Notes: generated by a model not told the origin, from the letters alone. A stretch of DNA of 64,000 nucleotides from Alphaproteobacteria bacterium (GCA_965220745.1 CBDCQT010000011.1:544001-608000); one strand, 5' to 3'; shown: positions 33,472 to 60,675, counted from the stretch's first letter. Numbers and translations: made by a program.

Positions 33472-35538
33472 ATGCGCCACATCATGGGCGTCGATATCGG
33501 CGGCACCTTTACCGATTTTTCACTGATCGACGATCGCGGCGGCATCACGCTTTGGAAGGAAGCGACGACGCCCGCCGATCCGGGGGTCGCCGTCCAGCGC
33601 GGCCTGGAAGCGCTCGCAGATGCCCAAGGTCTGGAGGTCGATTCCTTCGTTGGCAGTCTGGACCTCTTCGTGCATGGCCAGACCATCGCCACCAACACGG
33701 TGATCCAGCGCAACGGCCCCAAGACGGCGCTGCTCTGCACCGAGGGCTTCCGCGACGTTCTCTACTTCCGCGACGGCTTCAAGCCCGACCGCTACAACGT
33801 CAGCCTGCCCAGATCGAAGGATTTCATCCGCCGCGACCTGCGCCTGCCGCTCACGGAGCGGATGGACTATCGCGGCGAGCCGCTGATCGAGCTCGACGAG
33901 GACTCGGTGCGCGCCGCGGCGCGGACACTCAGCGAACAGGGTGTCGAATCCGTCGCCGTAGCGCTGCTCTGGTCCATCATGAACTCGAGCCACGAAGTCC
34001 GCGCCAAGGAGATTCTCGCGGAAGAGCTTCCGGGCGTCCCCGTGGTCCTGAGCTCGGACGTGCTGCCCATGATCCGCGAGTGGGAGAGGACATCGAGCAC
34101 CGTCCTCAGCGCTTACATCCTGCCCCGTATCTCCAGCTACATGATCGCGCTCGAGAAATATCTCTCCGAGAACGGCTTCGGCCAGAACCTGCTGGTCATG
34201 CAGCTCAACGGCGGCACGGCGACGGTCAAGCAGATCATCGAGCGGCCGATCTACGCGCTGGCCTCGGGCCCGGCGGCGGGGCCGGCTGCCGGCCTCTATT
34301 GCGCCGAGCGGGTGGGCGTCAACAACGTCATCACCATCGACATGGGCGGCACCAGCTTCGACGTCTGCATGGTGACCGACGGCGAACCTGCGCTGACCAA
34401 GGACATGCGCGTGCACGACAACCCGGTGGGCGTGGCCGCGGTCGACGTGCATTCGATCGGCGCGGGTGGCGGCAGCATCGCCTGGATCGACAAGGGCGGC
34501 GCGCTGCAGGTCGGCCCGATGAGCGCCGGCGCCGAGCCGGGGCCTGCCTGCTACGAGCTGGGCGGCGACCGGCCCACAGTGACGGACGCCAACGTGGTCC
34601 TCGGCTACATCAACCCCGATTTCTTCCTCGGCGGGCGGAGGGACATCAATCCCGATGCCTCCAACCGGGTCATCGAGGAGTCCATCGCGAAGCCGCTGGG
34701 CTTGAGCGTCGAACAGGCCGCCGACGGCATCTTCCAGATCGTCAACACCAACATGGTGGACGCGATCCGCGTCGTCTCGGTCGAGAAGGGCATCGACCCG
34801 CGCGGCTACAGCCTGGTGGTGGGCGGCGGCGCCGGCGCCATCCATGCCGGCGCGCTCGGCGTGGAGCTCGGCATGAAGCAAGCGATCATTCCGCGCTACG
34901 GCGGGGTCTTCTGCTCCTACGGCATGATCGCGAGCGACGTCCGCCACGACCTGATCAAGGCCTTCGCCACCAACACCAGCGACTTCGACCTCGCGCGTGC
35001 CAACGAGATTTTCGCCGAGCTCGAAGCCGAAGCGATCGCCGAACTCAAGGCGCAGGGCTTCGCCCGCTCGCGAATCAAGATTGCCCGCTTCGCCGACGCC
35101 AAATACTCGAACCAGATTCACGAGCTCACGATCCCGCTGCCGTCCAAGGGCAAGATCAAGAAGTCCGACATCGACAACATCGCCGAGGCCTTCCACGGCC
35201 TGCACGAGCGCATGTTCTCCTACTGCGTGCGGGAGAGCGCGGTCGACCTGTTCCACTGGCGGATCACGGCGGAGGGCCGGCTGCCAGAGCGCGAGACACC
35301 GATTCAGAAGCGCACGCGCAAGCCCGCGAGCGAGGCGCAGAAGGGCACGCGCATGGTCTATTTCAGGGCCTTCAAGAAGTACCGCCGGACCAAGATTTAC
35401 GACGGTGCCAAGGTGCGCCACGGCATGACCATCGAAGGGCCGGCCGTGGTCGAGCAGGAGAACTCGACGATCGTGGTCCAACCCAAGCACACCCTGAAGG
35501 TCAACCGCTACGACGATTTCGTCCTCGCGATCAACTGA
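33472..35538 (+). CDS. hyuA: Hydantoinase A/oxoprolinase family subunit with basic C-terminal domain
   Basis: GVDIGGTFTD, SGPAAG, DMGGTSFD and GAGGGSIA motifs; GGGAGG RBS. Confidence 0.92.
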   Translation: MRHIMGVDIGGTFTDFSLIDDRGGITLWKEATTPADPGVAVQRGLEALADAQGLEVDSFVGSLDLFVHGQTIATNTVIQRNGPKTALLCTEGFRDVLYFRDGFKPDRYNVSLPRSKDFIRRDLRLPLTERMDYRGEPLIELDEDSVRAAARTLSEQGVESVAVALLWSIMNSSHEVRAKEILAEELPGVPVVLSSDVLPMIREWERTSSTVLSAYILPRISSYMIALEKYLSENGFGQNLLVMQLNGGTATVKQIIERPIYALASGPAAGPAAGLYCAERVGVNNVITIDMGGTSFDVCMVTDGEPALTKDMRVHDNPVGVAAVDVHSIGAGGGSIAWIDKGGALQVGPMSAGAEPGPACYELGGDRPTVTDANVVLGYINPDFFLGGRRDINPDASNRVIEESIAKPLGLSVEQAADGIFQIVNTNMVDAIRVVSVEKGIDPRGYSLVVGGGAGAIHAGALGVELGMKQAIIPRYGGVFCSYGMIASDVRHDLIKAFATNTSDFDLARANEIFAELEAEAIAELKAQGFARSRIKIARFADAKYSNQIHELTIPLPSKGKIKKSDIDNIAEAFHGLHERMFSYCVRESAVDLFHWRITAEGRLPERETPIQKRTRKPASEAQKGTRMVYFRAFKKYRRTKIYDGAKVRHGMTIEGPAVVEQENSTIVVQPKHTLKVNRYDDFVLAIN

Positions 35539-35549
35539 GGGAGCGAGAC

Positions 35550-37490
35550 ATGGCCAACATATCCACGGTGCACCGCACCGGGCCGAAGACCAAGAGCATC
35601 GCCAAGAGGCAGGTCAGGACGCGGCCCCAGAAGAGCGCCAAGACGGCCGTCGATCCGATCACCTTCTCGGTCGTTCTCAATCGCTTCAACACGATTGCGA
35701 ACGAGATGACGCTGACCATGGAGAAGACCTCCTGGACCTCGATCATCGCGCTCGCACGCGACTTCTCTTGCGCGATCTACGACGCGAAGGCGCGCCAGAT
35801 CTGCATGATGGACGCGCTGCCGGTCCACACCAACTCGATGCACGTGGTCCTGAAGGAGATCGCGCGAGTCTTCGAAGGCGACATCCACGACGGCGATGTC
35901 ATCGTCTGCAACGACGCCTACAGCGGCAACACCCACGTCGGCGATTTCGTCACCGCCTGCCCGGTGTTCCACAAGGGCAAGCACATGTTCTGGAGCATGA
36001 CCAAGGGCCATCAGCTGGATTGCGGTGCCTTCATCCCCACCAGCACGCCCGCCGCCGCCAAGGACGTTTGGCAAGAAGGGCTGCAGCTGCCGCCGATCAA
36101 GTTCTACGAGAAGGGCCAGCGGCGCGAGGACGTGGTGCGCATGTACCTTGCCAACGTGCGCTGGCAGGAGTGGCTCTACGGCGACCTGATGGCGCAGCTC
36201 GGCTCGATCTGGACCGGCAAGCGGCGGCTCATCGAGCTTGCGGCGCACTACGGCAACGACGAGGTGGAGCGCTATATCGAGGCGATCTTCGACTACGCCG
36301 ACCAGCGCATGGCCCAGGAAATCCGCCAGATGCCGGATGGCGACTACGAGGGCACATCCTGGCTCGACACCGACGGCCAGGGCGGCACCGACATTCCCGT
36401 GAACGCGCGGGTCTCGATCCGGGACGACCGGGTCCACGTCGATTTCGGCGGCTCCGCACCGCAGACGCCGGGCGCCAACAACTCCTCCTTCGGCGTCATG
36501 CAGGCCGCGGCGGGCATCCCGATCCTCTGCACGATCGACCCCTCGATCCCCCACAACGACGGCTGCCTGCGCCACATCACGGCCGAGGCCCCGCTCGGCT
36601 CGGTGTGCAACGCGCAGTATCCGGCCTCCACCGCGCTCGCCACCATCGGCCCCGACGACACCATGCAGGACGCCGTCTACAAGGCGCTCGCCCACGCGGT
36701 GCCCGAGCGGGTTACCGGCGGGAACGGCCGGGTCAGCTGCGTGCCCTTCTTCTCGGGCACCGATACCCGCGACGGGCAGGACCGTTCCTGGGGCTGCATG
36801 TTCTTCAACGGCGGGCCGGCGGGCGGGGCATCCTCGAAGGAGGACGGCTGGCCGCTCCTCATCACGTCGGCCGGCATGGGTGGACTCAAGATCCTGAGCG
36901 TCGAGATGAGCGAGATGCTCTACCCCATGCGCGTCGATAAGCAGGAGATCGGCGCCGATTCCATGGGGCACGGCGAGCATCACGGCGGCCCCGGCGTCGA
37001 AATTCAGATCACGCCCATCGGCGGCCCGATCGAGTGCCACCTGTTCGGCGACGGCACCGCCAATCCGCCTCACGGCGTGATGGGCGGCACGACCGGGATC
37101 GGCGGCGGCAGCTACAAGGAGAACCTGGAAACGGGCAAGCGCACCTATTGCTCCTCGAAGGGGCTCCTCATGATCGAGGAGAACGAGGTTTGGGTGGCGC
37201 ACTCCAGCGGCGGCGGTGGCTACGGCGATCCGTTGAAGCGCGATCCCGAGGCGGTGCTGGAGAGCATCTTCGAGGGGCTGCTCACGGTCGAATGCGCGAC
37301 CGAGGTCTATGGCGTCGTCATCAACAAGGCGACCATGACCATCGACTGGAACAAGACCGAGGCGCGGCGAGAGCAGATAGCGGCCGAGCGCGGTCCATTG
37401 GAGGTGGTGGTACCGACCACGCCAGGCGCCTCCGACTGGATTCCGAAGCGGCTCCGGGACGGCGACGAATATCTGATCGATCCGCAATGA
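35550..37490 (+). CDS. hyuB: Hydantoinase B/oxoprolinase family subunit (basic-tail paralog 1)
   Basis: DPITFSV, RDFSCA, NTHVGD, GHQLD, QEGLQLPP and GGGGYGDP motifs. ATG 35550 follows AGGGAG. Confidence 0.92.
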   Translation: MANISTVHRTGPKTKSIAKRQVRTRPQKSAKTAVDPITFSVVLNRFNTIANEMTLTMEKTSWTSIIALARDFSCAIYDAKARQICMMDALPVHTNSMHVVLKEIARVFEGDIHDGDVIVCNDAYSGNTHVGDFVTACPVFHKGKHMFWSMTKGHQLDCGAFIPTSTPAAAKDVWQEGLQLPPIKFYEKGQRREDVVRMYLANVRWQEWLYGDLMAQLGSIWTGKRRLIELAAHYGNDEVERYIEAIFDYADQRMAQEIRQMPDGDYEGTSWLDTDGQGGTDIPVNARVSIRDDRVHVDFGGSAPQTPGANNSSFGVMQAAAGIPILCTIDPSIPHNDGCLRHITAEAPLGSVCNAQYPASTALATIGPDDTMQDAVYKALAHAVPERVTGGNGRVSCVPFFSGTDTRDGQDRSWGCMFFNGGPAGGASSKEDGWPLLITSAGMGGLKILSVEMSEMLYPMRVDKQEIGADSMGHGEHHGGPGVEIQITPIGGPIECHLFGDGTANPPHGVMGGTTGIGGGSYKENLETGKRTYCSSKGLLMIEENEVWVAHSSGGGGYGDPLKRDPEAVLESIFEGLLTVECATEVYGVVINKATMTIDWNKTEARREQIAAERGPLEVVVPTTPGASDWIPKRLRDGDEYLIDPQ

Positions 37491-38419
37491 GCGGGAGCAA
37501 CGCCATGGCGAGGCTCAATACATTCGATGCCGACGTCGGCGCAGATTCGTTGGCGGCGGCGATCAAGCGGGACGGCTATGTGATCGTGCGGGAGCTTCTC
37601 GATCCTGAGACCCTTGCGCGGCTCTCGGGCGAGCTGACCCCGCATCTGGAGGCGACGGATCTTGGCGACCCCGACGCCTTCATGGGGCACAAGACGAAGC
37701 GCTTCGGCGCGTTGCTCTCACGCTGCCCGACGAGCCGCGACATGGTGGTCCATCCGCTGGTGCTGGAGATCGCTGACCGCGTCCTCGGGCCGTATTGCGC
37801 GCGCTACCAGGTCCATTACACCGGAGTGATGCACGTCGAGCCCGGCGAGACCGTGCAAACGATGCACCGGGATACCGGCCTCTTTCCCATCCAGAACCCC
37901 GCGCCGCCGCTGACGCTCGCGACCATGTGGGCGGTCAGCGACTTCTCGGTGGAGAACGGGGCGACCCGCATCGTGCCGGGGAGCCACCAATGGCCTGACG
38001 AGCGCATACCGGAGCCGGACGAGATAAAGCAGGCGGAAATGCCGGCCGGTTCGCTGCTGATGTACGTGGGCAGCGTGATCCATGGCGCCGGCGCCAATCG
38101 CTCGAACGCCGCTCGCTGCGGTGTCGCGCTTCACTACGCGCTCGGCTGGCTGCGCCAGGAGGAGAACCAGTACCTCGCCGTGCCGATGGAGGAGGCGCGG
38201 ACCTTCCCCCATCAGTTGCAGTGCCTGATGGGCTACGACCTGGGCACAGTTAACCTGGGGTTCGTCGACCACAAGCATCCGAACGACATCCTGAACGGCA
38301 CCGCCGGCGATCAGGCCGGCGTGCTCGGACCTCAGGAGCTGATGGATGCGGACAACGCGATCCAGCGCTTCAAGGTCGAAGGCACAAAGGCCGTCGGCCG
38401 CGCTCGCATGAGTGTGTAA
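37487..38419 (+). CDS. Phytanoyl-CoA dioxygenase (PhyH) family protein
   Basis: RDGYVIV, MHRD, ENGAT, HGAGANRS and WLRQEENQYL motifs. Start is 37487 (ATGA overlap) or 37505. Confidence 0.88.
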   Translation: MSGSNAMARLNTFDADVGADSLAAAIKRDGYVIVRELLDPETLARLSGELTPHLEATDLGDPDAFMGHKTKRFGALLSRCPTSRDMVVHPLVLEIADRVLGPYCARYQVHYTGVMHVEPGETVQTMHRDTGLFPIQNPAPPLTLATMWAVSDFSVENGATRIVPGSHQWPDERIPEPDEIKQAEMPAGSLLMYVGSVIHGAGANRSNAARCGVALHYALGWLRQEENQYLAVPMEEARTFPHQLQCLMGYDLGTVNLGFVDHKHPNDILNGTAGDQAGVLGPQELMDADNAIQRFKVEGTKAVGRARMSV

Positions 38420-38461: not shown

Positions 38462-39367
38462 TCATAGCGGATCCCAGCTGAACACGTCGCCGGAGCGGTC
38501 CAGCGCGGCGAAGTGGCCCTGCAGCGCCGGCACGGCGTGGTCGGCGATCGCTTGCACGTCCCACCCCTCGCTCCGGTGGACGCTGCGGGCGGGCCGGAAA
38601 GGATCGAAGAGGAAAATCTCGTTGTGGCGTGTCCCGAAGACCTGGCCTGAGATGTCGCGCGCCGCGTCGGACGCGAGAAACACGGCGAGCGGCGCGTTCT
38701 TCTCGGGCGTCATCTTCTTGAGGCGCTCGATCCGCTCCCGTTGCTCGTCCGTGTCGGCCGGGATTTCGCTCGTCATCCGGCTCCAGGCGAAGGGCGCGAT
38801 GCAGTTGGAGCGCACGTTGAAGCGCTTCATGTCGAGGGCGATCGACTTGGACAGCGCGCAGATGCCGAGCTTGGCCGCCGCGTAATTCGCCTGCCCGAAG
38901 TTGCCGATCAGCCCGGACGTGCTGGTCATGTGGACGAAGGCGCCCGACTCCTGACGCCGGAAGTGCTCCGCCGCCGCGCGGCTCAGGAAGAAGCTGCCGT
39001 TGAGATGCACGCCGACGACGGAGAGCCATTGCTCGGCCGTCATCTTGTGGAAGATGGTATCGCGCAGGATACCGGCGTTATTCACCACGATGTCGATCCG
39101 CCCGAAGGCATCGAGCGCGGTTGCCACGATGGCGCGGGCGCTCTCCCAGCTCTCGACGCTGTGCGTGTCGATGGCGGCGGTGCCGCCGTCTTTCTCGATC
39201 AGCCGCTTGGTCTCCTCGGCTGGGGTCGCCGAGCCGCCTTCGCCTGTGACCGAGACGCCGATATCGTTGACGACGACGGAAGCCCCGGTCTGCGCGAGCG
39301 CCAGTGCGATCTCACGGCCGATGCCGCCGCCCGCGCCGGAGACGATTGCAACCTTTCCCTCGTTCAC
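38462..39367 (-). CDS. SDR, (3R)-hydroxyacyl-CoA dehydrogenase (MFE-2) type
   Basis: SGAGGGIG, VVVNDIG, NNAGILRD and GNFGQANYAAAK motifs. Confidence 0.88.
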   Translation of the reverse strand: MNEGKVAIVSGAGGGIGREIALALAQTGASVVVNDIGVSVTGEGGSATPAEETKRLIEKDGGTAAIDTHSVESWESARAIVATALDAFGRIDIVVNNAGILRDTIFHKMTAEQWLSVVGVHLNGSFFLSRAAAEHFRRQESGAFVHMTSTSGLIGNFGQANYAAAKLGICALSKSIALDMKRFNVRSNCIAPFAWSRMTSEIPADTDEQRERIERLKKMTPEKNAPLAVFLASDAARDISGQVFGTRHNEIFLFDPFRPARSVHRSEGWDVQAIADHAVPALQGHFAALDRSGDVFSWDPL

Positions 39368-39388
39368 CGTTCATCTCCCATCATTGCG

Positions 39389-40234
39389 TCACCCGAAGGT
39401 CGCGAGGCCGTTGCGCAGGACCAAGACGTCGCGCTCGACGGCGCGCGCGCGAAAGGCGCCGTTCCGCCACATCTCCACCTCGACGGTCTCCCCCGGAAAG
39501 ATCGGCGCCGAGAACCGCGCGGACATGCTGCGGAGCGATCCGGGATCGTCGGCAGCGAACGCGCGCAGAATGGCGTGGCAAGCGATGCCGAAGGTGCAGA
39601 GCCCGTGGAGGATCGGCCGCTCGAAGCCCGCCTTCTGCGCGACTGCAGGGTCGAGATGGAGCGGGTTGGGATCGCCATTCAGGCGATAAAGGAGAGCCTG
39701 TTCCGGACGCGTGGCAATGGCAACGGTGCGGTCGGGCTGGTCGCCCGGTTCCTCCGGCGCGGGACGCGGCGTGCCGGAGGGGCCATCGTAGCCGCCGTCG
39801 CCCCGGAGCATGATCGTGCGCGTCTCGGTCGTGATGACCGCGCCCGTGTCTGTGTCGCTGAGCGTCTTTTCGAGATAGAGCAGCGCGCCCTTCTGCGCTC
39901 CCTTGTCGACGATATCGACGATTCGGGTCTTGCCGACGACCGTACCGGCGCTGGGGATGGGTGCCTTCAGGGAGAATCCCTGCTCGGCATGGACGACCCG
40001 GCCCGCGTCGACCGTGGTGCGCGGATCGGCCAGCCAGAAGCCGGGATGGCCGAGCACCGAGCAGAACGACGGTACGATGCGGGGGCCCTTGTGGTCATCC
40101 ACGAATTGCAACTGCCACGGGTCGAGAGGATCGTGGCCGAGCCCGATTGACAGCGCGTAACGCACCGAGTCGAGCGGGCCGTAAGTCTGCCGGGCCTCGG
40201 GAATCTCGAAGCCCATGAGGGCATCGTAGTTCAC
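39389..40234 (-). CDS. MaoC-type (R)-enoyl-CoA hydratase 2
   Basis: YALSIG, VHAEQ, the hydratase-2 motif YRLNGDPNPLHLDP and PILHGLCTFG. Confidence 0.9.
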   Translation of the reverse strand: MNYDALMGFEIPEARQTYGPLDSVRYALSIGLGHDPLDPWQLQFVDDHKGPRIVPSFCSVLGHPGFWLADPRTTVDAGRVVHAEQGFSLKAPIPSAGTVVGKTRIVDIVDKGAQKGALLYLEKTLSDTDTGAVITTETRTIMLRGDGGYDGPSGTPRPAPEEPGDQPDRTVAIATRPEQALLYRLNGDPNPLHLDPAVAQKAGFERPILHGLCTFGIACHAILRAFAADDPGSLRSMSARFSAPIFPGETVEVEMWRNGAFRARAVERDVLVLRNGLATFG

Positions 40235-40325
40235 GGTGCGGAGGTCTCAGAGCGCGGTGGGTTGCTCACAGCCGTCGCAATGAGGTGAGGGTTATGCTGC
40301 AGATTGAGCCGGCGCGGTGGGTCAT

Positions 40326-41528: not shown

Positions 41529-41554
41529 GTTCGTTCTCCCCGCGCTGCAGCGCC

Positions 41555-42985: not shown

Positions 42986-43075
42986 GCAGGAACTCCGGAG
43001 TTGAGCGGATACGCGACCTAGGGGCGGGGCATACTACACGGTCGCACCGGCAAGGCTAATCGGCCGGCAACCCAT

Positions 43076-44546: not shown

Positions 44547-44549
44547 CGC

Positions 44550-49821: not shown

Positions 49822-49850
49822 CGATGCCGCACGAGGCGGGAGGAAAGCGA

Positions 49851-51803: not shown

Positions 51804-51828
51804 CTGACAAAGCGGAGATTCCAGGAAC

Positions 51829-52227: not shown

Positions 52228-52246
52228 TGCCTGAGGCGAGCTTCCG

Positions 52247-53017
52247 TTGAAGATCGCGGACAAGTCCGTCGTCGTCACTGGCGGCGCGAGCGGGATCGGG
52301 CTCGCGCTGGCGCGTCGCTTCAGGGCGGAGGGCGCGCGAGGCATCGTTCTGGCCGATCTGCAGGAGGACGCCCTGTTGAAGGCCTCCGGCGAGATCGACG
52401 CCCTGGCGGTTCCCTGCGATGTGGCGGACGAAGCCGACATCAAGCGCCTCGTTGCCGCTGCGGAGGACGCCTTTGGGCCGATCGACGTGTTCGTCTCCAA
52501 TGCCGGGATCGCGCGCATGGGCGGCGTCGATGCCCCGGATGAGGAGTGGCGGCAGAACTGGGACATCCACGTCATGGCCCACATCTACGCGGCGCGGGCG
52601 GTGGCGCCCAAGATGGCGGCGCGCGGCAGCGGCTATCTGGTCAACACGGCATCGGCCGCGGGCCTCCTCAGCCATGTGGAATCGGCGACCTATACGGTGA
52701 CCAAGCATGCCGCCGTGGCCTTCGCCGAGTGGCTCTCGATCGCCTACGGCGACCGGGGGGTGCGGGTTTCGGTGCTCTGCCCGCAGGCGGTCCGCACCGC
52801 AATGCTCACGGGCCGGGACGAGGGCGTCGCCAGCCTCGACGGCGTGCTGGAGCCGGAACAGGTGGCCGACAGCGTGATCGCGGCGATGGAGCGGGAGGAG
52901 TTCTTGATCCTTCCCCACGCCGAGGTGCAGGGCTACGTGGAGCGCAAGGCCTCGGATCGCGAGCGCTGGCTCAGGGGGATGCGCAAGCTGCGCGCGGCAC
53001 ACGGAGGAGCCGCCTAG
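52247..53017 (+). CDS. Short-chain dehydrogenase/reductase
   Basis: TGGASGIG, SNAG, VMAH, NTASAAG, YTVTK and LCPQAVRT motifs. Confidence 0.9.
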   Translation: MKIADKSVVVTGGASGIGLALARRFRAEGARGIVLADLQEDALLKASGEIDALAVPCDVADEADIKRLVAAAEDAFGPIDVFVSNAGIARMGGVDAPDEEWRQNWDIHVMAHIYAARAVAPKMAARGSGYLVNTASAAGLLSHVESATYTVTKHAAVAFAEWLSIAYGDRGVRVSVLCPQAVRTAMLTGRDEGVASLDGVLEPEQVADSVIAAMEREEFLILPHAEVQGYVERKASDRERWLRGMRKLRAAHGGAA

Positions 53018-53020
53018 CCC

Positions 53021-54772
53021 ATGGGCCGTCGTTTGAGCCGGGTGGAGGCCCACGAGCGCCTTGTGGGCGCCGGGCTCCCCTTCGCGCTTGAAGAGATCGA
53101 GATCCGGGGCGTCGTCGTCCGTGCGTGGACGAACGCGCCGCGCACGCTTGGCGACGTTCTTGCCGCCTCGGCAGAGCATGGCGAGAGGGCGTGCCTCGTG
53201 CTCGACCGCGAGCGCCTGAGCTACGCCGACCACCATCGCCAGGCGTGCCGGTTGGCGCAGGCCCTGCGGACGCGCTACGGCATCCGTAAGGGCGACCGGG
53301 TCGCGATCGCGATGCGCAACCTGCCGGAATGGTCCGTCGCGTTCTGGGCCATCACCGGCATCGGCGCCATCGTGGTGCCCCTCAACGCCTGGTTCACCGC
53401 ACGCGAGCTCGCCTACTGCGTGGCCGATTCCGGTTCGCTGGTGGTGGTGGCGGACGGCAAGCGTGCGGCGCTGCTCGCCTCCTGTGAGGAAGACCTCGGC
53501 CTGCGGGGCCTGATCGTCGTGCGCGGCGAGGAGGCTGAAGTCAGTGACGGCGTTGCACTCTGGAACGACGTGCTCGCCACCGCAGACGACGATCAATCGC
53601 TTTCTGACGTGCCGATCGAGCCCGACGACGACGCCACGATCTTCTATACCTCCGGCACCACGGGGACGCCCAAGGGCGCGGTCGGTACGCACCGCAACAT
53701 CTGCACCAACATCATGACGGTGGCCTACCGCGGCGCCGTGCGGCAGCTCGGTCGCGGCGTGACGCCGGTGTGGCTCGGCGGGCCGGTGCCGCATCCCACA
53801 GTGCTGGTGCCGGCGCCGTTCTTCCACGTCACCGGCTGCCACTCGATCCTGGCGCCGGCCATCTTCGGCGGCACCACCCTGATCCTGATGCATCGGTGGG
53901 ACCCGGAGCGGGCGCTCGCGCTGATCGAGCACGAGAGCGTCACGCATTTCACCGGCGTGCCGGGCATGGCCCTGCAGATGCTCGAATCGCCGGGCTTCGC
54001 CGACCACGACACCTCGTCGCTGATCGGCCTCAACTATGGCGGCACGCCGCCACCGGTCAGGCTGCTGGACCGTATTGCGGAGCTGTTGCCGCAGGCGGAG
54101 GCCGAGAACGGCTACGGCCTCACCGAAGCCTCCTCCCTCGTAAGCTACAACGCGGGCGAGAGCTATCGCCGCCACCCTGACAGCGCCGGCATTTCCGTGC
54201 CCACGTGCGACATCAAGATCGTCGACGAGAGCGGCGTGACGGTGCCCGCAGGCGTGCGCGGCGAGGTCTGCGTGCGGGGGCCCAACATCGTCAGGGGCTA
54301 CTGGAACCAGCCCGAGGCGAGCGCCGAGACCTTCCGCGACGGCTGGCTGCACACCGGCGACATCGGGCTGCTGGATGAGGACGGTTTGCTCTTCCTGCTC
54401 GACCGCGCCAAGGACATGCTGATCAGGGGCGGCGAGAACGTCTATTGCGTCGAGGTGGAGAACGCGCTTTGTAGTCACCCGGCGGTCAAGGACGCGGCCG
54501 TGATCGGCAAACCGCACCCTGTGCTCGGACAGGAGGTCGCGGCGGTCGTGCAGGTCTCGGCCGGGCAGGCGGTGGGCGAGGCGGCGTTGATCGAGCATTG
54601 CCGCTCGCGCATTGCCGCGTTCAAGGTGCCGGCGACGATCGAGGTGCGGACCGAGCCGCTGCCGGTCAACGCGAACGGCAAGGTCATCAAGCGGCAGCTT
54701 CAGGACGAGCTGTTTGCGGTTTCGGACGAAGGAACGGGCTGCAGCGGCGGCCAACCGAGCGACGAGCGATAG
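53021..54772 (+). CDS. Class I adenylate-forming enzyme (acyl-CoA ligase)
   Basis: YTSGTTGTPKG, GYGLTE, GWLHTGD, RGGEN and NGKVIK motifs. Confidence 0.92.
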   Translation: MGRRLSRVEAHERLVGAGLPFALEEIEIRGVVVRAWTNAPRTLGDVLAASAEHGERACLVLDRERLSYADHHRQACRLAQALRTRYGIRKGDRVAIAMRNLPEWSVAFWAITGIGAIVVPLNAWFTARELAYCVADSGSLVVVADGKRAALLASCEEDLGLRGLIVVRGEEAEVSDGVALWNDVLATADDDQSLSDVPIEPDDDATIFYTSGTTGTPKGAVGTHRNICTNIMTVAYRGAVRQLGRGVTPVWLGGPVPHPTVLVPAPFFHVTGCHSILAPAIFGGTTLILMHRWDPERALALIEHESVTHFTGVPGMALQMLESPGFADHDTSSLIGLNYGGTPPPVRLLDRIAELLPQAEAENGYGLTEASSLVSYNAGESYRRHPDSAGISVPTCDIKIVDESGVTVPAGVRGEVCVRGPNIVRGYWNQPEASAETFRDGWLHTGDIGLLDEDGLLFLLDRAKDMLIRGGENVYCVEVENALCSHPAVKDAAVIGKPHPVLGQEVAAVVQVSAGQAVGEAALIEHCRSRIAAFKVPATIEVRTEPLPVNANGKVIKRQLQDELFAVSDEGTGCSGGQPSDER

Positions 54773-54789
54773 CGGCGGGAGAACCGGAC

Positions 54790-56199
54790 ATGGACATCGA
54801 ACAGGCCCACAACCTCTCTCTCGAGGAGATGGACAAGCAGAGCTTTCTGCACCCCTACACGGCTCTCAAGCCGCATCTCGAGAACGGGCCCAACATCATC
54901 AAGTCGGGCAGCGGCGTGCGGCTCACCAACGCGGCGGGCAAGTCGTACATCGACGGCATGGCCGGCCTCTGGTGCGTCAACATCGGCTGGGGCCACCGGG
55001 AAGTGGTCGACGCGATCACCGAGCAGGCCGAGAACCTGGCCTACTACCACAGCTTCTTCTCGATGGGGACGGAAGCGCCCATCCGCCTGGCGGACCGCAT
55101 CCTGCGCCTGGTGCCCGGCAACATGAGCAAGGTGTTCTTCGGCAATTCGGGCTCGGACGCGAACGACACCAATGTAAAATTGGTTCACTACTACAACAAC
55201 TTGCGCGGCAAGCCCGAGAAGAAGAAAATCATCTCCCGTAAGCGGGCTTACCACGGCGTCACGGTCGCGTCGGCGAGCCTGACAGGATTGCCGAGCATTC
55301 ACACGGCGTTCGATCTGCCGCTACCGACAGTCCTCCATACCGAGACCCCGCACCACTGGCGGAACGCCGAGCCGGGGATGAGCGAGCGCGACTTTTCCAA
55401 GTGGTGCGCGCAGAAGCTGGAGGAGATGATCCTCGCCGAGGGGCCAGAGACCGTGGCCGCGTTCATCGCCGAGCCGGTGATGGGCGCGGGCGGCGTGATC
55501 ATCCCGCCGGAGGGCTATTTCCCCGAAATGCAGAGGGTTCTGCGCAAGTACGACATGCTGATGATCGCCGACGAGGTCATCACCGGCTTCGGTCGCACCG
55601 GCAACTGGTTCGGCTCCCAGACCTACGACATCGAGCCCGACATCATCACCATCGCCAAGGGGCTGACGAGCGGCTACGTGCCCATGTCGGGCAGCATCAT
55701 CTCCGACGAGATCTGGCAGGTGATCAAGGAGGGGGCGCCCGGCGTCGCATACTTCGCGCACGGCTACACCTACTCCGCACATCCCGTGGCGGCGGCGGCG
55801 GCCATGGCCAACATCGACATCATGGAGCGGCTGGACCTGCCGGCGAAATGCGCCGAGGTCGGCAGCTACTTCCAGCGGCGGCTGCGCGAGGTCGCCGCGG
55901 ACCATCCTCTGGTCGGCGAGGTGCGCGGCGAGGCCCTGCTGGCGGCCGTCGAGCTGGTCAAGGACAAGGAGACCAGGGAGTCCTTCGACCCCGCCCTGCT
56001 CGTGGGGCCGACGCTGAGCAAGTACACGATCGAGGAGGGGCTCATCATCCGCGCCCTGCCGCTCAGCGATGCAGTCTCCTTCTCGCCGCCCCTGGTCATC
56101 ACCGAGGCCGAGGTGGACGAGGCGCTCGTGCTGTTCAAGCGCGCGTTGGATCGCGTCACCGACGAGCTGGTCAAGGACGGCACTTGGACGCCTAAGTAG
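54790..56199 (+). CDS. Class III omega-amino acid/amine aminotransferase
   Basis: DGMAGLWCVN, SGSDAND, AYHG, FIAEPVMGAGG, ADEVITGFGRTG, AKGLTSGY and HGYTYSAHP motifs. Confidence 0.92.
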   Translation: MDIEQAHNLSLEEMDKQSFLHPYTALKPHLENGPNIIKSGSGVRLTNAAGKSYIDGMAGLWCVNIGWGHREVVDAITEQAENLAYYHSFFSMGTEAPIRLADRILRLVPGNMSKVFFGNSGSDANDTNVKLVHYYNNLRGKPEKKKIISRKRAYHGVTVASASLTGLPSIHTAFDLPLPTVLHTETPHHWRNAEPGMSERDFSKWCAQKLEEMILAEGPETVAAFIAEPVMGAGGVIIPPEGYFPEMQRVLRKYDMLMIADEVITGFGRTGNWFGSQTYDIEPDIITIAKGLTSGYVPMSGSIISDEIWQVIKEGAPGVAYFAHGYTYSAHPVAAAAAMANIDIMERLDLPAKCAEVGSYFQRRLREVAADHPLVGEVRGEALLAAVELVKDKETRESFDPALLVGPTLSKYTIEEGLIIRALPLSDAVSFSPPLVITEAEVDEALVLFKRALDRVTDELVKDGTWTPK

Positions 56200-56219
56200 T
56201 CCGCTCGTCGGCCGATAGG

Positions 56220-58025
56220 ATGGAGAGCGCGGTCGTCAATCCGCGCGACCTGCGGTTTCAGCTCTTCGACGTGCTGGGCGCGGACGCGCTGTGTGCGCGC
56301 ACGCGCTACCGCGACCATGACCGCGAGTCCCTGGAGGCCGCCCTCGATCTCGCCGTTCAGATCGCGGACGAAGTGCTCTGGCCCAATGCGCCGATCGGCG
56401 ACAGGGACGAGCCCAGGCTCGAGAACGGCCGGGTGCGCGTGCCCGCCGCCATTCACGAGAGCGTGGCCGCGATCACCGATGCGGGTTTCATTGCTGCCGC
56501 GCTCGACTACGACCGGGGCGGCATGCAGCTTCCCGCCGTGCTCCTGCAGGCCTGCCTTGGCGTATTGAAGGCGGCCGATACGGCGACGGCCGGCTACCTG
56601 ATGCTGACCAAGGCGGCGGCCAATCTGCTCGACGTTCACGGCACCGACGAGCAGAAGCGGCTCTACATGGAGCCGCTCTACGCCGGGCGTTTTCTTGGCA
56701 CGATGTGCCTCTCGGAGCCCGACGTGGGCTCGTCATTGGGCGATATCAGGTGCCGGGCGGTGCCCGCCGGCGATGGCAGCTACCGGCTCTCCGGCAGCAA
56801 GATGTGGATCTCCGGCGGCGACCAGGACATCTCGGAGAACATCGTCCACCTGGTTCTCGCGAAGCTCCCCGACGCGCCGCCCGGCGTGAAGGGGATCTCG
56901 CTCTTCATCGTGCCGAAGATCCGGGTGAAGGCCGACGGCACGCTCGGCGCCGCCAACGATGTCGCCGTGGCCGGCCTCAATCACAAGATGGGCTACCGCG
57001 CGATCTCGAATTGCCTGCTGAGCTTCGGCGAGAACGGCAACTGCGAGGCGCACCTGGTGGGCGCTCCCCACGAGGGCCTCGCCTGCATGTTCCACATGAT
57101 GAACGAGGCGCGGATCGGGGTCGGCATCAGCGGCGCCATGATCGGCTATGCGGGCTACATGCAGGCGGTCCGTTACGCCAGGGAGCGGCGCCAGGGCCGG
57201 CCGGTCGATAACCGCGATCCATCGCAGCCGCCCGTGCCCATCGTGCGCCACGCCGACGTGAAGCGCATGCTGCTCAAGCAGAAGGCGATCGTCGAGGGAG
57301 CGCTCGCGCTCTGCCTGACCTGCGCGTGCTATCTGGACGACATGACCACGGCGGAGGGCGAGAACGAGCGGCGGCGGGCCGCCCTGCTGCTCGACATTCT
57401 TACGCCGATCGCCAAGGCCTGGCCCGCGGAGTTCTGCCAGGAGGCCAACAGCCTCGCGATCCAGGTTCACGGCGGCTACGGCTACACGCGGGACTTCCCG
57501 GTCGAACGGCTCTACCGCGACAACCGCCTCAACGCGATCCACGAGGGGACGAACGGCATCCAGGCGATCGACCTGCTCGGGCGCAAGGCGCGCTTGCGGG
57601 ACGGCGCCGCGCTCACGGCGTTGATGGAGGAAATCCGTGCCGATATCGACGCGGCGCGAGACCTGCCCGCCCTCGCCGAGTATTGCGGCGCGCTGGAGGC
57701 CGTCGCGACCGAGATCGAGAACGCCACGACCGCCATCGGCGCAGCACGCGCGGAGCGTCGGATCGGGGACTCGCTCGCGAACGCGAGCCTCTATCTCAAC
57801 GCCTTGGGCCACATCGTCGTCGCGTGGCTCTGGCTGCGCCAGGCGCGCGCCGCGGACGACGCCCTCCGGCAAGGCGCGGTCACGGACGACGCAGCGTTCT
57901 ACCGTGGCAAGCTCGCGGCCTGCCGTTACTTCTTCCGCTACGAGCTGGCCGGGATGAGACCCGCCATCGCGCTGCTCGCGCGGGTCGATACGACCTGTGC
58001 CGAGATGGACACGAACATGTTCTAA
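56220..58025 (+). CDS. Acyl-CoA dehydrogenase (about 600-aa type)
   Basis: GTMCLSEP, KMWISGG, KGISLF, HMMNEAR, QVHGGYGY and IHEGTNGIQ motifs. Confidence 0.92.
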   Translation: MESAVVNPRDLRFQLFDVLGADALCARTRYRDHDRESLEAALDLAVQIADEVLWPNAPIGDRDEPRLENGRVRVPAAIHESVAAITDAGFIAAALDYDRGGMQLPAVLLQACLGVLKAADTATAGYLMLTKAAANLLDVHGTDEQKRLYMEPLYAGRFLGTMCLSEPDVGSSLGDIRCRAVPAGDGSYRLSGSKMWISGGDQDISENIVHLVLAKLPDAPPGVKGISLFIVPKIRVKADGTLGAANDVAVAGLNHKMGYRAISNCLLSFGENGNCEAHLVGAPHEGLACMFHMMNEARIGVGISGAMIGYAGYMQAVRYARERRQGRPVDNRDPSQPPVPIVRHADVKRMLLKQKAIVEGALALCLTCACYLDDMTTAEGENERRRAALLLDILTPIAKAWPAEFCQEANSLAIQVHGGYGYTRDFPVERLYRDNRLNAIHEGTNGIQAIDLLGRKARLRDGAALTALMEEIRADIDAARDLPALAEYCGALEAVATEIENATTAIGAARAERRIGDSLANASLYLNALGHIVVAWLWLRQARAADDALRQGAVTDDAAFYRGKLAACRYFFRYELAGMRPAIALLARVDTTCAEMDTNMF

Positions 58026-58107
58026 GCGCAAAGCCGCTATGATCGGCCGCGGCACCGGGCGCCGGGCCGCGCGCCGCAACCGATATCCAGGGCAAGGGGA
58101 GATGGAC

Positions 58108-58593
58108 ATGGCCGAGCTCACGCTGGAGCAACGGGTTCAACGGATCGAGGACGCCGAAGAGATCAGGCGCCTGCGCTATCTCTACTGCGAGTACGGCAAC
58201 CTCTACGACGCCGAGCGCTTCGCCGCCCTCTTCGCGCCGGACGCGATATGGGACGGGGGCGATGCCTTCGGGTGCCAGGAGGGGCTGGAGCAGATCGAGC
58301 AGATGGTGCGCGACGCGGGCGAGCGAATCCGCTTCTCCGCCCATTACATCACGAACGAGCTGATTGAGGTCGACGGCGACAGCGCAACCGGGCGCTGGTG
58401 GCTGTTCATGCCGTGCGTCCTGGACGGCGAGTCGACCTGGCTCTTCGCCACATACGACGATGAGTACGTGAAGCTCGACGGGCGCTGGCTGATCAAGAAG
58501 ATCGTCCTCGACGTAAAGAACTTCGCACCCCAAGACAAAGGCTGGGCCGAGAGCGCCAAGCCCTGGGTCGACGATCACTGGAAAGGGCCCTGA
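58108..58593 (+). CDS. NTF2-like SnoaL_4 family protein (LinA/BaiE-like), copy 1
   Basis: LEQRVQRIEDAEEIRRL, LFAPDAIWD, HYITN and YDDEYVKLDGRW motifs. Confidence 0.85.
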   Translation: MAELTLEQRVQRIEDAEEIRRLRYLYCEYGNLYDAERFAALFAPDAIWDGGDAFGCQEGLEQIEQMVRDAGERIRFSAHYITNELIEVDGDSATGRWWLFMPCVLDGESTWLFATYDDEYVKLDGRWLIKKIVLDVKNFAPQDKGWAESAKPWVDDHWKGP

Positions 58594-58731
58594 GCCCCCG
58601 GCGCAGAAGACCCCTTGCACCGCCGCACCCGCCGACGGCAAGCTGCAGGCGCGGCGGGCGGACGGTTCCTTCCGCGCCGCAGTGAGTACAAACGCGCGCA
58701 GACATCACATCACACGCAGACAGGGTGAGAC

Positions 58732-60675
58732 ATGGCTTCGACTTCCACAGCGCGCCGCGCCGTGCGGCAGATCAAGGACCAGGACAAGCCCAAGCCGGCC
58801 GCCAGAAAGCGCGGCAACGGTGCTGCAGGCGCCGTCGATTCGATCACCTTCTCCGTCATCCTCAATCGCTTCTCCACCATCGCGAACGAGATGACGCTGA
58901 CCATGGAGAAGACCGCCTGGACCTCGATCATCGCGCTGGCACGCGACTTCTCCTGCGCGATCTACGACGCCAAGGCCCGGCAGATCTGCATGCAGGATGC
59001 CCTGCCGATCCACACGAATTCCCTGCACGTCGTGCTGGGCGAGATCGCGCGGGTCTTCGAGGGCGATATCCACGACGGCGACGTCATCGTCTGCAACGAC
59101 GCCTACAGCGGCAACACCCATATCGGCGATTTCGTCACCGCTTGTCCCGTGTTCCACCAGGGCAAGCACATGTTTTGGAGCGTGGCGAAGGGCCATCAGC
59201 TCGATTGCGGCGCGTATATCCCGACCAGCGTGCCGGCGCCCGCCAGGGATGTCTGGCAAGAGGGGCTGCAGCTACCGCCGATCAAGTTCTACGAGAAGGG
59301 CCAGCGGCGCGAGGACGTGGTGCGCATGTACCTCGCCAACGTGCGCTGGCAGGAATGGCTCTACGGCGACCTGATGGCGCAGCTCGGCTCGATCTGGACC
59401 GGTCGGCGTCGCCTCGTCGAGCTTGCGGCGCACTACGGCAACGACACGATCGAGCGCTACGCCGAGGCGATCCTCGATTACTCCGACAGGCGGATGGCCG
59501 ATGAAATCCGCGCCATCCCCGACGGCGACTACGACGGCATGTCGTGGCTCGACTCGGACGGCCATGGCATGACGAACATCCAGGTCGGCGCCCGGGTCTC
59601 GGTGCGGGGCGAGAACGTGCACATCGATTTCTCGAATTCGGATCCGCAGGTTCCGAGTGGGAACAACTCGTCTTACGGCGTGATGCAGGCTGCGGCGGGT
59701 ATCCCGGTGCTCTGCTCCATCGACCCCACCATTCCTCACAACGACGGCTGCCTCAGGCACATCACGGCGGACGCGCCCAAGGGCACCGTCTGCAACGCCG
59801 AGTACCCGGCGTCCACGGCGCTCGCCACCGTGGGGCCCGGCGATACCATGCAGGAGGCGGTGTGGAAGGCGCTCGCCCACGCCGTGCCGGAGCGCGTCAT
59901 GGGCGGCAGCGGCAAGGACGGCAACCTGCCGATGTTCTCCGGCACGGATACGCGGAGCGGCAAGCCGGTCGACTGGGGCTGCATGCTGTTCAATGGCGCG
60001 CCCGCCGGCGGCGCCACGTCGTCGGCCGACGGCTGGCCGCTGATCATGACCTCGGCCGGCATGGGTGGCCTCAAGATCATGAGCGTCGAGCTCTGCGAGC
60101 TGTTCTACCCCTACCGCATCGACCGCCAGGAAATCGCGGCCGATTCTATGGGGCACGGCAAGCACATCGGCGGCCCCGGCGTGGATATCCAGGTCAGCCC
60201 GACCGACGGCGGCTTCCAGGTCGAGCTCTTCGGCGAGGGCCAGGGCAACCCGCCCTTCGGCGTGATGAACGGCACGCCCGGCATCGGCGGCGGTAGTTAC
60301 AAGGAGAATTTGGAGACCGGCAAGCGGACCTATTTCTCCTCCAAGGGCCGCTTCTATATCGGAGAGAACGATATCTGGGCGGGCACGTCGAGCGGGGGCG
60401 GCGGTTACGGCGACGCGCTGGAGCGCGATCCGGAAGCCGTGCTGGAGAGCGTTTTCGACGGCATGCTGTCGCTCGAATGCGCCGAAGACGTCTACGGCGT
60501 CGTGATCAACCGGGCGATGATGACCATCGACCGGGCCAAGACCGAGAAACTGCGCGCCAAGATGGCGGCCAAGCGCGGCCCGCTCCAGGTGACCTCGCCC
60601 AGCCGTCCCGGTGCCGCCGACTGGATTCAGAGAAAGCTGCGCCAGGGCGACGAATACCTCGTGGACGCGCAATAG
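58732..60675 (+). CDS. hyuB: Hydantoinase B/oxoprolinase family subunit (basic-tail paralog 3)
   Basis: DSITFSV, RDFSCA, NTHIGD, GHQLD and GGGGYGD motifs. Confidence 0.92.
   Translation: MASTSTARRAVRQIKDQDKPKPAARKRGNGAAGAVDSITFSVILNRFSTIANEMTLTMEKTAWTSIIALARDFSCAIYDAKARQICMQDALPIHTNSLHVVLGEIARVFEGDIHDGDVIVCNDAYSGNTHIGDFVTACPVFHQGKHMFWSVAKGHQLDCGAYIPTSVPAPARDVWQEGLQLPPIKFYEKGQRREDVVRMYLANVRWQEWLYGDLMAQLGSIWTGRRRLVELAAHYGNDTIERYAEAILDYSDRRMADEIRAIPDGDYDGMSWLDSDGHGMTNIQVGARVSVRGENVHIDFSNSDPQVPSGNNSSYGVMQAAAGIPVLCSIDPTIPHNDGCLRHITADAPKGTVCNAEYPASTALATVGPGDTMQEAVWKALAHAVPERVMGGSGKDGNLPMFSGTDTRSGKPVDWGCMLFNGAPAGGATSSADGWPLIMTSAGMGGLKIMSVELCELFYPYRIDRQEIAADSMGHGKHIGGPGVDIQVSPTDGGFQVELFGEGQGNPPFGVMNGTPGIGGGSYKENLETGKRTYFSSKGRFYIGENDIWAGTSSGGGGYGDALERDPEAVLESVFDGMLSLECAEDVYGVVINRAMMTIDRAKTEKLRAKMAAKRGPLQVTSPSRPGAADWIQRKLRQGDEYLVDAQ

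Follow-up and report, generated by a model that had tools for sequence, protein, structure and literature searches.

Gene content of the hydantoinase island

The stretch of DNA analysed here, referred to as the window, is 64,000 nt in length, and a Pfam profile search of 58 window ORFs identified two genes for hydantoinase-A proteins, the ATP-binding type of subunit, and four for hydantoinase-B proteins, which carry the metal site (Table 1). Three of the latter, B1, B2 and B3, had been recognised in an earlier reading made from the sequence alone (the sequence-only reading), a count that overlooked a fourth gene, B0. This belongs with A0 to a second and distant hydantoinase pair, divergent from A1 and about 200 bp away from it, and its true start is probably internal to the listed ORF. 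A fifth and distant B gene, also uncounted, is found just outside the window end (L011:15035-16894; L numbers denote loci of the genome scan described below) with no A gene beside it. No further A gene was found among the window ORFs at positions 1-27000, and A1 is the only gene of its type in the window.

Table 1. Position and assignment of the hydantoinase genes and surrounding gene runs in the window
Feature	Position	Strand	Assignment and content	Basis
B0, beta subunit of the second, distant pair	29423-31405	-	Pair with A0	Pfam
A0, alpha subunit of the second, distant pair	31237-33270	-	Divergent from A1	Pfam
A1, ATP-binding alpha subunit (hydantoinase A / CapA-like)	33472-35538	+	688 aa	Pfam Hydantoinase_A, Hydant_A_N, Hydant_A_C
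B1, metal-site beta subunit	35550-37490	+		Pfam Hydantoinase_B, 490 bits
PhyH-type Fe/2-oxoglutarate dioxygenase	37487-38419	+	Last gene in the A1-B1 unit	Pfam PhyH, 112 bits
Run between A1-B1 and the B2 operon	38462-47943	-	SDR, MaoC hydratase, thiolase, HMG-CoA-synthase-like/ChsH2-OB fusion, Liv-type ABC transporter	Pfam
Operon-like run with B2 and B3	47989-61174	+	GNAT-like, SDR, cupin, B2, F420-type PPOX, SDR, acyl-CoA ligase, class-III aminotransferase, large acyl-CoA dehydrogenase, SnoaL-like, B3, SnoaL-like	Pfam, NCBIfam
B2, beta subunit without neighbouring A	49824-51803 (alternative start 49851)	+		Pfam Hydantoinase_B, 486 bits
B3, beta subunit without neighbouring A in the window	58732-60675	+		Pfam Hydantoinase_B, 481 bits

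The three Pfam domains of A1 lie within ORF 33439-35538(+), and the start proposed earlier at 33472 is likely to be correct because the database homologue is also 688 aa long. Both the domains and the ASKHA motifs expected of an A-type protein (phosphate-1, phosphate-2 and adenosine, as defined in section 2.1 of PMC8453981) are all present, and residues D8, G10-D15, D290-T294 and G353-P358 are fully or almost fully conserved among 55 aligned homologues. B1 begins 11 nt after the A1 stop codon, and, as the sequence-only reading had it, is the only one of the three paralogs with an adjoining A gene; the neighbours of B2 are the cupin and PPOX genes, while B3 has a SnoaL-like gene on each side. 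PhyH genes, such as the one that closes the A1-B1 unit, are also found beside the hydantoinase modules of L018 and beside the lone B genes of L033 and L036. The Liv-type transporter of the minus-strand run is made up of two ATPases, two permeases and a binding protein, and also adjoins the B2 module in L024 and L020. The order SDR-cupin-B2-SDR-ligase-aminotransferase-ACAD recurs in a contig of 40% GC (PAWF01000008.1, L024) and in part in L020 and L009.

Beta-subunit paralogs and their substrate pockets

The description of B1, B2 and B3 as close paralogs is borne out by identities of 68-74% (B1/B2 68%, B1/B3 74%) and by matches to Hydantoinase_B (PF02538) over its full length (profile positions 1-519 of 519, or 518 for B3), compared with 27% identity between B0 and B1. 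The B2 start at 49851 corresponds to M10 of the longer ORF, a methionine that is nearly invariant among homologues. B1 finds its best PDB match in chain B of 6YRA (E = 1.2e-101), the caprolactamase subunit CapB, and pairwise alignment to this chain equates B1 residues D71, H129, D132 and H154 with D41, H99, D102 and H124 of CapB, which are essential according to mutation (PMC8453981). These four metal ligands, noted as invariant in the sequence-only reading, are found in all 82 clade-B rows with the exception of one alignment gap. Near-identical N-terminal halves had also been reported, and the Greek-key N-terminal domain (B1 residues 35-235) is indeed 81-91% identical among the three proteins, as against 68-76% over residues 35-646, but the same gradient is obtained against single-copy relatives (74-78% in the Greek-key domain vs 61-67% overall), and high N-terminal conservation is thus a family-wide feature and not one peculiar to B1-B3.

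Fixed differences between the paralogs are concentrated in the pocket. Across 578 aligned positions, 46 are fixed within each of the B1, B2 and B3 orthogroups and different between them. The CapB pocket has 15 equivalent positions in the alignment, of which seven belong to this set, compared with 39 of the remaining 563 (Fisher p = 5e-5, odds ratio 11.8); the pocket residues are those listed in section 2.7 of PMC8453981 and were mapped by pairwise alignment to a 4.0 Å CapB structure. The three variable segments singled out earlier were recovered in the alignment as written, namely GGNGRVSCVPF / GGMPAIHCVPM / GGSGKDGNLPM, TIGPDD / TICPGD / TVGPGD and ITSAGMGGL / LSPAALGGQ / MTSAGMGGL (B1 / B2 / B3), and all of them include pocket positions. 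In B1 numbering, the pocket signature of B2 is G369/I395/A442/Q446 and that of B3 is G369/D395/L398.

Operons with one A and several B genes, and the predicted A-contact surface

A genome scan with B peptide patterns returned 71 loci. In L008 and L009 two clade-B genes stand in tandem behind a single A1-type gene (A-B-B), and in L017 and L018 three do so (A-B-B-B); the contigs concerned bear additional B2-type genes (L021, L024) at a distance of about 8-10 kb. Genomes carry from one to five clade-B copies with a single A1-type gene seen, a variation that fits exchangeable modules. Within the multi-B clade (38 rows) 14 B genes adjoin an A gene, six come after another B and 18 adjoin neither, whereas outside this clade 36 of the 44 clade-B rows adjoin A. 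A careful maximum-likelihood tree of 44 rows resolved the B1 (seven rows, support 100/100), B2 (11 rows, 100/100) and B3 (10 rows, 100/99) clades. Every B1-clade gene sits directly behind an A1-type gene (7/7); in the B3 clade, two of the ten immediately follow A (L008, L009), two are the third and last gene of an A-B-B-B run (L017, L018) and six have neither A nor B adjoining. Since the B3 clade holds genes in A-led runs, the B3 gene of the window is a relocated member of an A-led operon.

Could each B gene that lacks a neighbouring A be served by its own A elsewhere in the genome, or by A0, so that the ratio is 1:1 and nothing is shared? The A counts above cover only the window and the scanned loci, the family is abundant in such genomes (of 8000 candidates scored against A1, 7199 proteins reached E <= 1e-100), and A0 is a close neighbour of A1. 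We nevertheless consider this improbable, given the existence of single-A operons of the A-B-B and A-B-B-B types. A0 is moreover always accompanied by its own B0 directly downstream, and the same pair is present after the A-B-B(-B) runs of L008, L009, L017 and L018. A database count points the same way, although the ratio it gives is approximate: among the best 120 clusters listed per query, with 8000 candidates scored per search, about 16 A clusters reach 77% identity or more with the A of a multi-B genome (with seven more ambiguous at 59-68%), against 48 B clusters nearest to the multi-B clade, the cluster of B1 itself being absent from the list.

The predicted contact surface between the subunits also argues against A0 as the missing partner. 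Over the 34 interface positions predicted on the A side, A1 shares 94% identity with the A proteins of L009 and L018 and only 32% with A0, and over the 43 on the B side B0 is only 26% identical to B1 or B2, while the three paralogs are highly alike (B1/B2 84%, B1/B3 88%, B2/B3 84%). Identity to single-copy sister-clade proteins over the predicted interface is also 84-88%; high conservation of this surface, too, is a family-wide feature, one that speaks for an unrelaxed contact surface in B genes without an adjoining A and not for specific co-adaptation. A model of A1 with the N-domain of B2 (residues 40-300) reached an ipSAE of 0.78, compared with 0.00 for the best of three controls, a score that likeness to the solved complexes 6YRA, 5L9W and 5M45 may explain. 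Among solved complexes 116 of 157 attain this mark, and among mismatched pairs two of 215 do so; close cousins of a true partner are also known to pass such scoring; the runs had at least 82% of contacts in common and a partner pLDDT of at least 84.

A different explanation is that B2 and B3 act without any A subunit, as stand-alone metal-dependent hydrolases (or isomerases or decarboxylases), in which case their substrates would be rings that do not require ATP activation, or intermediates that other enzymes of the island, the CoA ligase for instance, have activated. All 11 B2-clade genes lack an adjoining A, and a separate lone lineage (L032, L033, L036, L045), as well as L070, has no A1-type gene in the available flanks; for L033, L036 and L070 these extend about 9-10 kb upstream and 4-10 kb downstream. 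Such genes would suit an A-independent function, as would the fifth B gene past the window end. In addition, Tyr136 of CapB, which section 2.10 of PMC8453981 puts forward as the sole acid/base candidate for CapAB, is replaced by Thr or Val in B1-B3, and the chemistry may therefore differ. Set against this are the B3 orthologs inside A-led operons, the predicted A-contact positions, whose conservation in B2 and B3 equals that in B1 (84-88%), and the fact that, wherever the contig is long enough, every B2 ortholog has an A1-type gene at a distance of 8-14 kb within a syntenic island. The CapAB literature drawn on here (PMC8453981) yielded no A-independent family member, and we regard this explanation, too, as unlikely.

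A proposed shared alpha subunit and its closest known systems

On balance we lean, by a narrow measure, towards A1 being common to the exchangeable beta subunits B1, B2 and B3 in a lactam/cyclic-amide catabolic island. That one A might serve several B proteins of differing specificity was proposed in the sequence-only reading and is now supported in part, by the single-A A-B-B and A-B-B-B operons with B3 orthologs among their members, by fixed differences concentrated in the pocket, and by a predicted A-contact surface of B2 and B3 that matches B1 and not B0. The product of the island would be a modular ATP-dependent cyclic-amide (lactam/hydantoin-type) hydrolase, and, by analogy with the solved caprolactamase, its active form would be an A-B-B-A tetramer on a B-B core, whether homotypic (A-Bx-Bx-A) or mixed (A-Bx-By-A). 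A1 would use ATP to generate an activated intermediate that then reaches the metal site in the bound B by way of a tunnel. The B subunits, which keep the A-contact surface and metal ligands and vary the residues that line the pocket, may on account of that variation each open a different ring. The ring-opening products would be omega-amino acids, to be processed by the co-encoded class-III aminotransferase and then by the acyl-CoA ligase and beta-oxidation enzymes. The recurrence of this 1:n arrangement in other bacteria suggests a single energy-supplying subunit for several specificity subunits.

In published CapAB mechanisms the organic substrate is itself activated in the A subunit (PMC8453981, section 2.10), so a shared A1 would need to accept every substrate, which counts against sharing. 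A bolder form of the proposal, which we hold to be rather doubtful, is that A1 is a substrate-agnostic activation engine that docks interchangeably, with the beta subunits alone choosing the ring that is opened. A1 would then produce the same activated compound in every case, such as carboxyphosphate made from bicarbonate, or alternatively would phosphorylate any lactim offered. If true, this would represent a natural plug-in design for the ATP-driven hydrolysis of amides, horizontally spread between alphaproteobacterial genomes of 67% GC and gammaproteobacterial genomes of 40% GC, and would answer what the A subunit of this enzyme family activates.

The paralogs might instead be obligate partners in one hetero-oligomer, whose mixed B-B' core carries A, and so not be alternative enzymes at all; this would parallel the duplicated subunit of acetophenone carboxylase. 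CapB dimerises via residues 129-174 (PMC8453981, section 2.7), and the equivalent stretch (B1 159-204) is 78-91% identical among B1-B3, so that mixed dimers are plausible on steric grounds. Genes of the B1 and B3 types are present together in the lineage of the window, as well as in L008/L009 and L017/L018, and co-translation of the tandem genes of A-B-B(-B) operons would promote their co-assembly. Yet clade-B copy number ranges from one to five, with A accompanied by a single B in L007, L015 (where the flanks cover 10 kb on both sides) and L016, and all copies have the metal ligands and distinct conserved pockets, unlike a purely structural duplicate. B2 and B3 of the window are also in a different operon from A1-B1, and the complete chromosome OY763937.1 gave B1 and B2 only, although the missing B3 is a weak observation, as the two B peptide patterns identified one locus (L020), which ends 106 bases after B2. 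We judge an obligate hetero-oligomer the least probable of these explanations.

The sharing of A1 that we favour can be set against several characterised systems. The closest are CapAB of Pseudomonas jessenii (PDB 6YRA) and OplAB of P. putida KT2440, which are two-gene ATP-dependent lactam hydrolases and, like A1 and its B proteins, have an ASKHA-type ATP-binding A subunit and a D/H/D/H metal site in B. CapAB is the best PDB match for A1 (6YRA chain A, E = 5.9e-148) as well as B1, and also the best NCBIfam model, and its pathway likewise places a class-III aminotransferase and beta-oxidation genes after the lactamase (PMC6061476). The CapAB genes, however, are strictly paired 1:1 and their products form an (alpha-beta)2 tetramer, as opposed to one A and three B paralogs in the island, and scores against the CapA and CapB equivalogs (NF050156 and NF050157) fall below the cutoff of 1000 bits (A1 716; B1 396, B2 381, B3 397). 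B1-B3 exceed CapB by about 30 N-terminal and about 35 or more C-terminal residues, and differ from it at the vicinal Cys410-Cys411, replaced by Ala with Gly or Ala, in addition to Tyr136.

N-methylhydantoinase / 5-oxoprolinase (PDB 7HK5; eukaryotic OPLAH), the second-best PDB match (A1 E = 5.5e-136, B1 E = 4e-77), has the same two modules and performs ATP-dependent cyclic-amide ring opening, but its A and B are joined 1:1 in a single chain, the reverse of sharing one A. Many homologues carry the JGI name 'N-methylhydantoinase A/B', and no substrate evidence links N-methylhydantoin or 5-oxoproline to the island. The one A per B of such fusions and of HyuAB/CapAB pairs is found neither among the clade-B genes of the window nor in the A-B-B and A-B-B-B runs of its relatives.

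A carboxylase had also been suggested for the locus, which the best matches, to lactamase and hydantoinase, and the lack of a gamma-subunit gene among the scanned genes do not support; no gamma-like family was detected by Pfam among the 58 window ORFs scanned, short ORFs (under about 100 aa) having been covered in part. Similarity to acetophenone carboxylase (Apc) of Aromatoleum aromaticum (PDB 5L9W), of the same superfamily, is low, with 135 bits for B1 against 5L9W_A, and NCBIfam scores of 133-157 bits for ApcD and 373 bits for ApcC, each against a cutoff of 1500. Apc, an (alpha alpha' beta gamma)2 plus epsilon complex, does provide a precedent for a duplicated subunit type in one complex (PMC8453981, section 2.1), as does the Apc-like acetone carboxylase of Rhodococcus aetherivorans from the same superfamily (PMC13677872). 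In Apc it is the ATP-binding A-type subunit that is duplicated, alongside a single B-type, gamma and epsilon, whereas the island multiplies the B-type.

Hydantoinase-type genes of the window and their enzyme class

Genes of the window, which has a G+C content of 67%, were picked by third-position GC and then scanned against Pfam and NCBIfam, which placed six hydantoinase/oxoprolinase-family genes between 29.4 and 60.7 kb. These are A1, encoding an ATP-binding alpha subunit, the paralogous metal-site beta subunit genes B1, B2 and B3, and a second, distant pair known as A0 and B0; the Pfam scan of the 21 gene candidates in positions 1–27000 found no further A or B. The observation made in the sequence-only reading, that B1, B2 and B3 are colinear close paralogs with three variable segments and invariant ligand motifs, is confirmed by our alignment, in which all of these were found as quoted (identity 68% for B1/B2 and 74% for B1/B3; 27% for B0 against B1). 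To it we add the A0/B0 pair and a fifth, distant B gene past the window end. The latter is flanked by an MFS transporter and a class I/II aminotransferase, with a LysR regulator further on, and no A gene is found alongside it or in the following 5 kb. B1–B3 also begin with Lys/Arg-rich tails of ~34–47 residues, which are poorly conserved (6–27% identity) and have no counterpart in CapB, and have in common a C-terminal extension of ~35 residues with a conserved end.

Features of the window and related loci, with positions
Feature	Position	Strand	Remark
B0	29423-31405	-	real start probably internal
A0	31237-33270	-	
A1	33439/33472-35538	+	
B1	35550-37490	+	start 11 nt past A1 stop
B2	49824/49851-51803	+	
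B3	58732-60675	+	
Fifth B	L011:15035-16894 (~window 63769-65628)	-	620 aa; Pfam Hydantoinase_B 408 bits; ~240 bits to B1-B3
N-terminal tails of B1, B2, B3	35550-35651, 49824-49964, 58732-58836		
B1 ortholog	L004:10001-11641		aligned only to B1 residue 547
B2-type copy	L024:8371-10011		aligned only to ~residue 554
SnoaL-like + PhyH dioxygenase pair	6451-7961		adjoins sugar-type ABC transporter
XRE-type HTH fused to M78 (ImmA/IrrE-like) peptidase domain	12884-13975	+	
54% GC patch	18001-20000		~13 points under rest of window
DUF5615/PIN-like gene, adjoining MerR-HTH/DUF433 gene	18501-19540	-	pair within 54% GC patch
N,N-dimethylformamidase beta-subunit-like gene and preceding 122-aa ORF	19963-22629	-	beta-like gene 759 aa; DMFA2_C 313 bits
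SCP-x-type thiolase	40326-41528	-	
HMG-CoA-synthase-like domain fused to ChsH2-type zinc ribbon + OB fold	41555-42985	-	beside thiolase
PPOX-class gene	51829-52227	+	85.6 bits vs cutoff 79.05 of F420-dependent family TIGR03618

The closest relatives among solved and named proteins are the two subunits of caprolactamase CapAB of Pseudomonas jessenii, A1 matching the ATP-binding CapA best (6YRA_A, E = 5.9e-148) and B1 the metal-site CapB (6YRA_B, E = 1.2e-101), followed in both cases by the fused N-methylhydantoinase 7HK5; B1 matches acetophenone/acetone carboxylase subunits far more weakly, and the carboxylase reading of the system was set aside. CapA and CapB are also the best NCBIfam models, with 716 and 381–397 bits against an equivalog cutoff of 1000, so that on sequence A1 and B1–B3 are classed as lactamase/hydantoinase-type enzymes and not as caprolactamase orthologs.

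One A gene and several B genes across genomes

A genome scan with an alignment of B1–B3 gave 113 pattern matches, of which 79 were confirmed, in 71 loci. Six-frame ORFs of all loci were searched with A0, A1 and B0–B3, giving 82 genes of the B1/B2/B3 type (clade-B), the window included; in 40% GC loci genes were called by longest ORF. The layout of the window recurs in all of its nearest genomes, which are alphaproteobacterial/Rhodospirillales MAGs at 95–99% identity, including the complete chromosome OZ243972.1. A single A1-type gene is followed by two tandem clade-B genes in loci L008 and L009 and by three in L017 and L018 (40% GC; PAWF01000008.1, CAXEND010000007.1), and in all four the run is succeeded by an A0-B0 pair. 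Further B2-type genes are located ~8–10 kb upstream on the same contigs (L021, L024).

Maximum-likelihood trees of the B genes (a quick one of 84 rows and a careful one of 44) agree, and separate three orthogroups. The B1 clade (7 rows, support 100/100) lies right behind A in 7/7, and the B2 clade (11 rows, support 100/100) adjoins A in 0/11, while the 10 rows of the B3 clade (support 100/99) comprise two right behind A, two last in A-B-B-B and six without adjacent A or B. Across the multi-B clade as a whole (38 rows), 14 genes adjoin A, 6 come after another B and 18 adjoin neither; outside it, 36/44 clade-B genes adjoin A. Extra B genes have also arisen independently, in a B-B-A run (L052) and in a lone lineage (L032, L033, L036, L045) whose neighbours are PhyH, luciferase-like, GNAT, SnoaL and SDR genes. 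The B1 ortholog in L004 and one B2-type copy in L024 align incompletely, each possibly through a frameshift, a pseudogene or an assembly error.

In the databases, the best 120 clusters each for A1 and B1 were classed by nearest neighbour: 16 A clusters shared at least 77% identity with the A of some multi-B genome, a further 7 were ambiguous, and 48 B clusters were nearest to the multi-B clade. The resulting A:B ratio of ~1:3 among the clusters listed is only indicative, since scoring in both searches was limited to 8000 best-sharing candidates, and the cluster of B1 itself is not among the matches listed.

CapAB is an A-B-B-A tetramer whose CapB-CapB core is made by residues 129–174, according to the available text of PMC8453981. 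Mixed B-B' cores are possible, as the dimer segment is 78–91% identical among B1–B3; alternative complexes are nevertheless favoured over one fixed hetero-oligomer, because B copy number varies, between one and five for each A1-type gene located.

Contact surface and substrate pocket of the B subunits

The main rivals to an A1 common to all three B subunits are that the B2 lineage may work independently of A and that unlinked partner A genes may exist. Modelled in complex with residues 40–300 of B2, with alignments as input, A1 (688 aa) reached an ipSAE of 0.78 (best of 3 controls, 0.00), a mark attained by 116/157 solved complexes and 2/215 mismatched pairs; the runs have at least 82% of contacts in common and the partner pLDDT is at least 84. 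Similar complexes have already been solved, so the model is read as likeness to these and not as demonstrated binding. Its contacts map to elements named in the available text of the crystal-structure paper (PMC8453981). On the B side of the predicted interface (43 positions) B1–B3 are 84–88% identical, against 26% to B0, and these positions are equally conserved in single-copy relatives; on the A side (34 positions) A1 is 94% identical to the A of A-B-B(-B) operons and 32% to A0. B2 and B3 are therefore predicted to keep an A1-type contact surface without sign of relaxation, unlike that of A0's partner. The near-identical N-terminal halves, considered as a sign of a common A, do not serve as one in themselves, because the gradient between domains is family-wide and is seen against single-copy relatives as well.

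The four metal ligands are kept in all clade-B rows bar one gap. The CapB pocket, for which 15 residues are listed (PMC8453981, available text), was mapped onto B1 through a pairwise alignment (B1 numbering = CapB + 30 to ~residue 297 and for 347–399, and CapB + 31 from 401), and every variable segment picked out by the sequence-only reading includes mapped pocket positions. The pocket signature differs from one orthogroup to the next and, within each, is conserved in distant genomes.

Pocket residues of the three B subunits (B1 numbering)
Position	B1	B2	B3
166	T	V	V
369	D	G	G
395	V	I	D
398	V	V	L
442	G	A	G
446	L	Q	L

Differences fixed within orthogroups (46/578 positions) are clearly enriched in the pocket (7/15 pocket vs 39/563 other positions; Fisher p = 5e-5), but when the three window copies are simply compared with one another, their differences show only marginal enrichment there (9/15 vs 204/563, p = 0.056). 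The orthogroups differ at pocket positions 166, 366, 369, 395, 398, 442 and 446 (B1 numbering). Tyr136 of CapB, the sole acid/base candidate its authors name in the available text (PMC8453981), is replaced by Thr or Val in B1–B3, from which the vicinal disulfide of CapB is also absent. On the most economical interpretation, A1 would serve several exchangeable beta subunits whose pockets differ.

The island, its proposed route and known systems

The genes form an island that is syntenic throughout between the 67% GC window and a 40% GC contig, in the order Liv-type ABC transporter, SDR, cupin, B2, SDR, acyl-CoA ligase, class-III aminotransferase, large acyl-CoA dehydrogenase, A-B-B-B, A0-B0 and PhyH. 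Protein identity between the window and five 40% GC loci (L017, L018, L021, L022, L024) is 63–80% (A1-type ~80%, clade-B 63–78%). This synteny across a 27-point GC gap and between loci labelled Alpha- and Gammaproteobacteria suggests that the island has spread horizontally. It is no known plasmid, the plasmid collection giving no useful match (a single one of 113 bp at 78% identity). An actinobacterial origin, suspected from the F420-type match of a PPOX-class gene that is missing from the syntenic island of L024, was dropped in view of the nearest genomes. A promoter/terminator scan of 46000–62000 does not inform operon boundaries, as its counts were no higher than in shuffled sequence (1 vs 1.8; 7 vs 6.6).

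Several other genes of the window deserve mention. The DUF5615/PIN-like and MerR-HTH/DUF433 genes resemble a toxin-antitoxin-type pair, which may have been a separate acquisition, and a 122-aa ORF without Pfam match that precedes the dimethylformamidase-like gene could be its small subunit. The thiolase and the HMG-CoA-synthase-like fusion presumably resemble the thiolase/HMGCS/DUF35 complexes of archaea. Close to the catabolic genes in the first 27 kb, the XRE-M78 gene is the sole one seen that looks like a regulator. A second SnoaL-like/PhyH pair in that region echoes the PhyH and SnoaL genes flanking the hydantoinase genes.

As proposed, the island would import a nitrogenous ring compound, which A1 with its exchangeable beta subunits would open to an omega-amino acid, to be transaminated and the remainder beta-oxidised, a route that parallels the caprolactam pathway (PMC6061476, available text). 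If the conserved one-A/many-B arrangement holds, specificity would reside in the exchangeable beta subunits, and these would make up a ready panel of biocatalysts with which to open stable 5- to 7-membered lactams (nylon monomers). The arrangement would also warn annotators that lone 'hydantoinase B' genes are not necessarily pseudogenes or stand-alone enzymes, and offer a natural experiment on mechanism, namely whether organic substrate or bicarbonate is activated in A.

To our knowledge, descriptions of ATP-dependent lactamases, hydantoinases and oxoprolinases give A and B as a 1:1 pair or a fusion, and full-text literature searches found no account of one A serving several B subunits or lone ones. 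In CapAB the ATP site of A is connected by a 40 Å tunnel with the Zn site of B, and the mechanisms proposed have an activated lactim made in A and hydrolysed in B (PMC8453981). The same source, in its available text, describes the duplicated subunit of acetophenone carboxylase as of the ATP-binding type (alpha, alpha') and not the B type; that enzyme, the sole complex with several paralogs in the literature consulted, thus multiplies its ATP-binding subunit, whereas the system of the window multiplies the metal-site B subunit.
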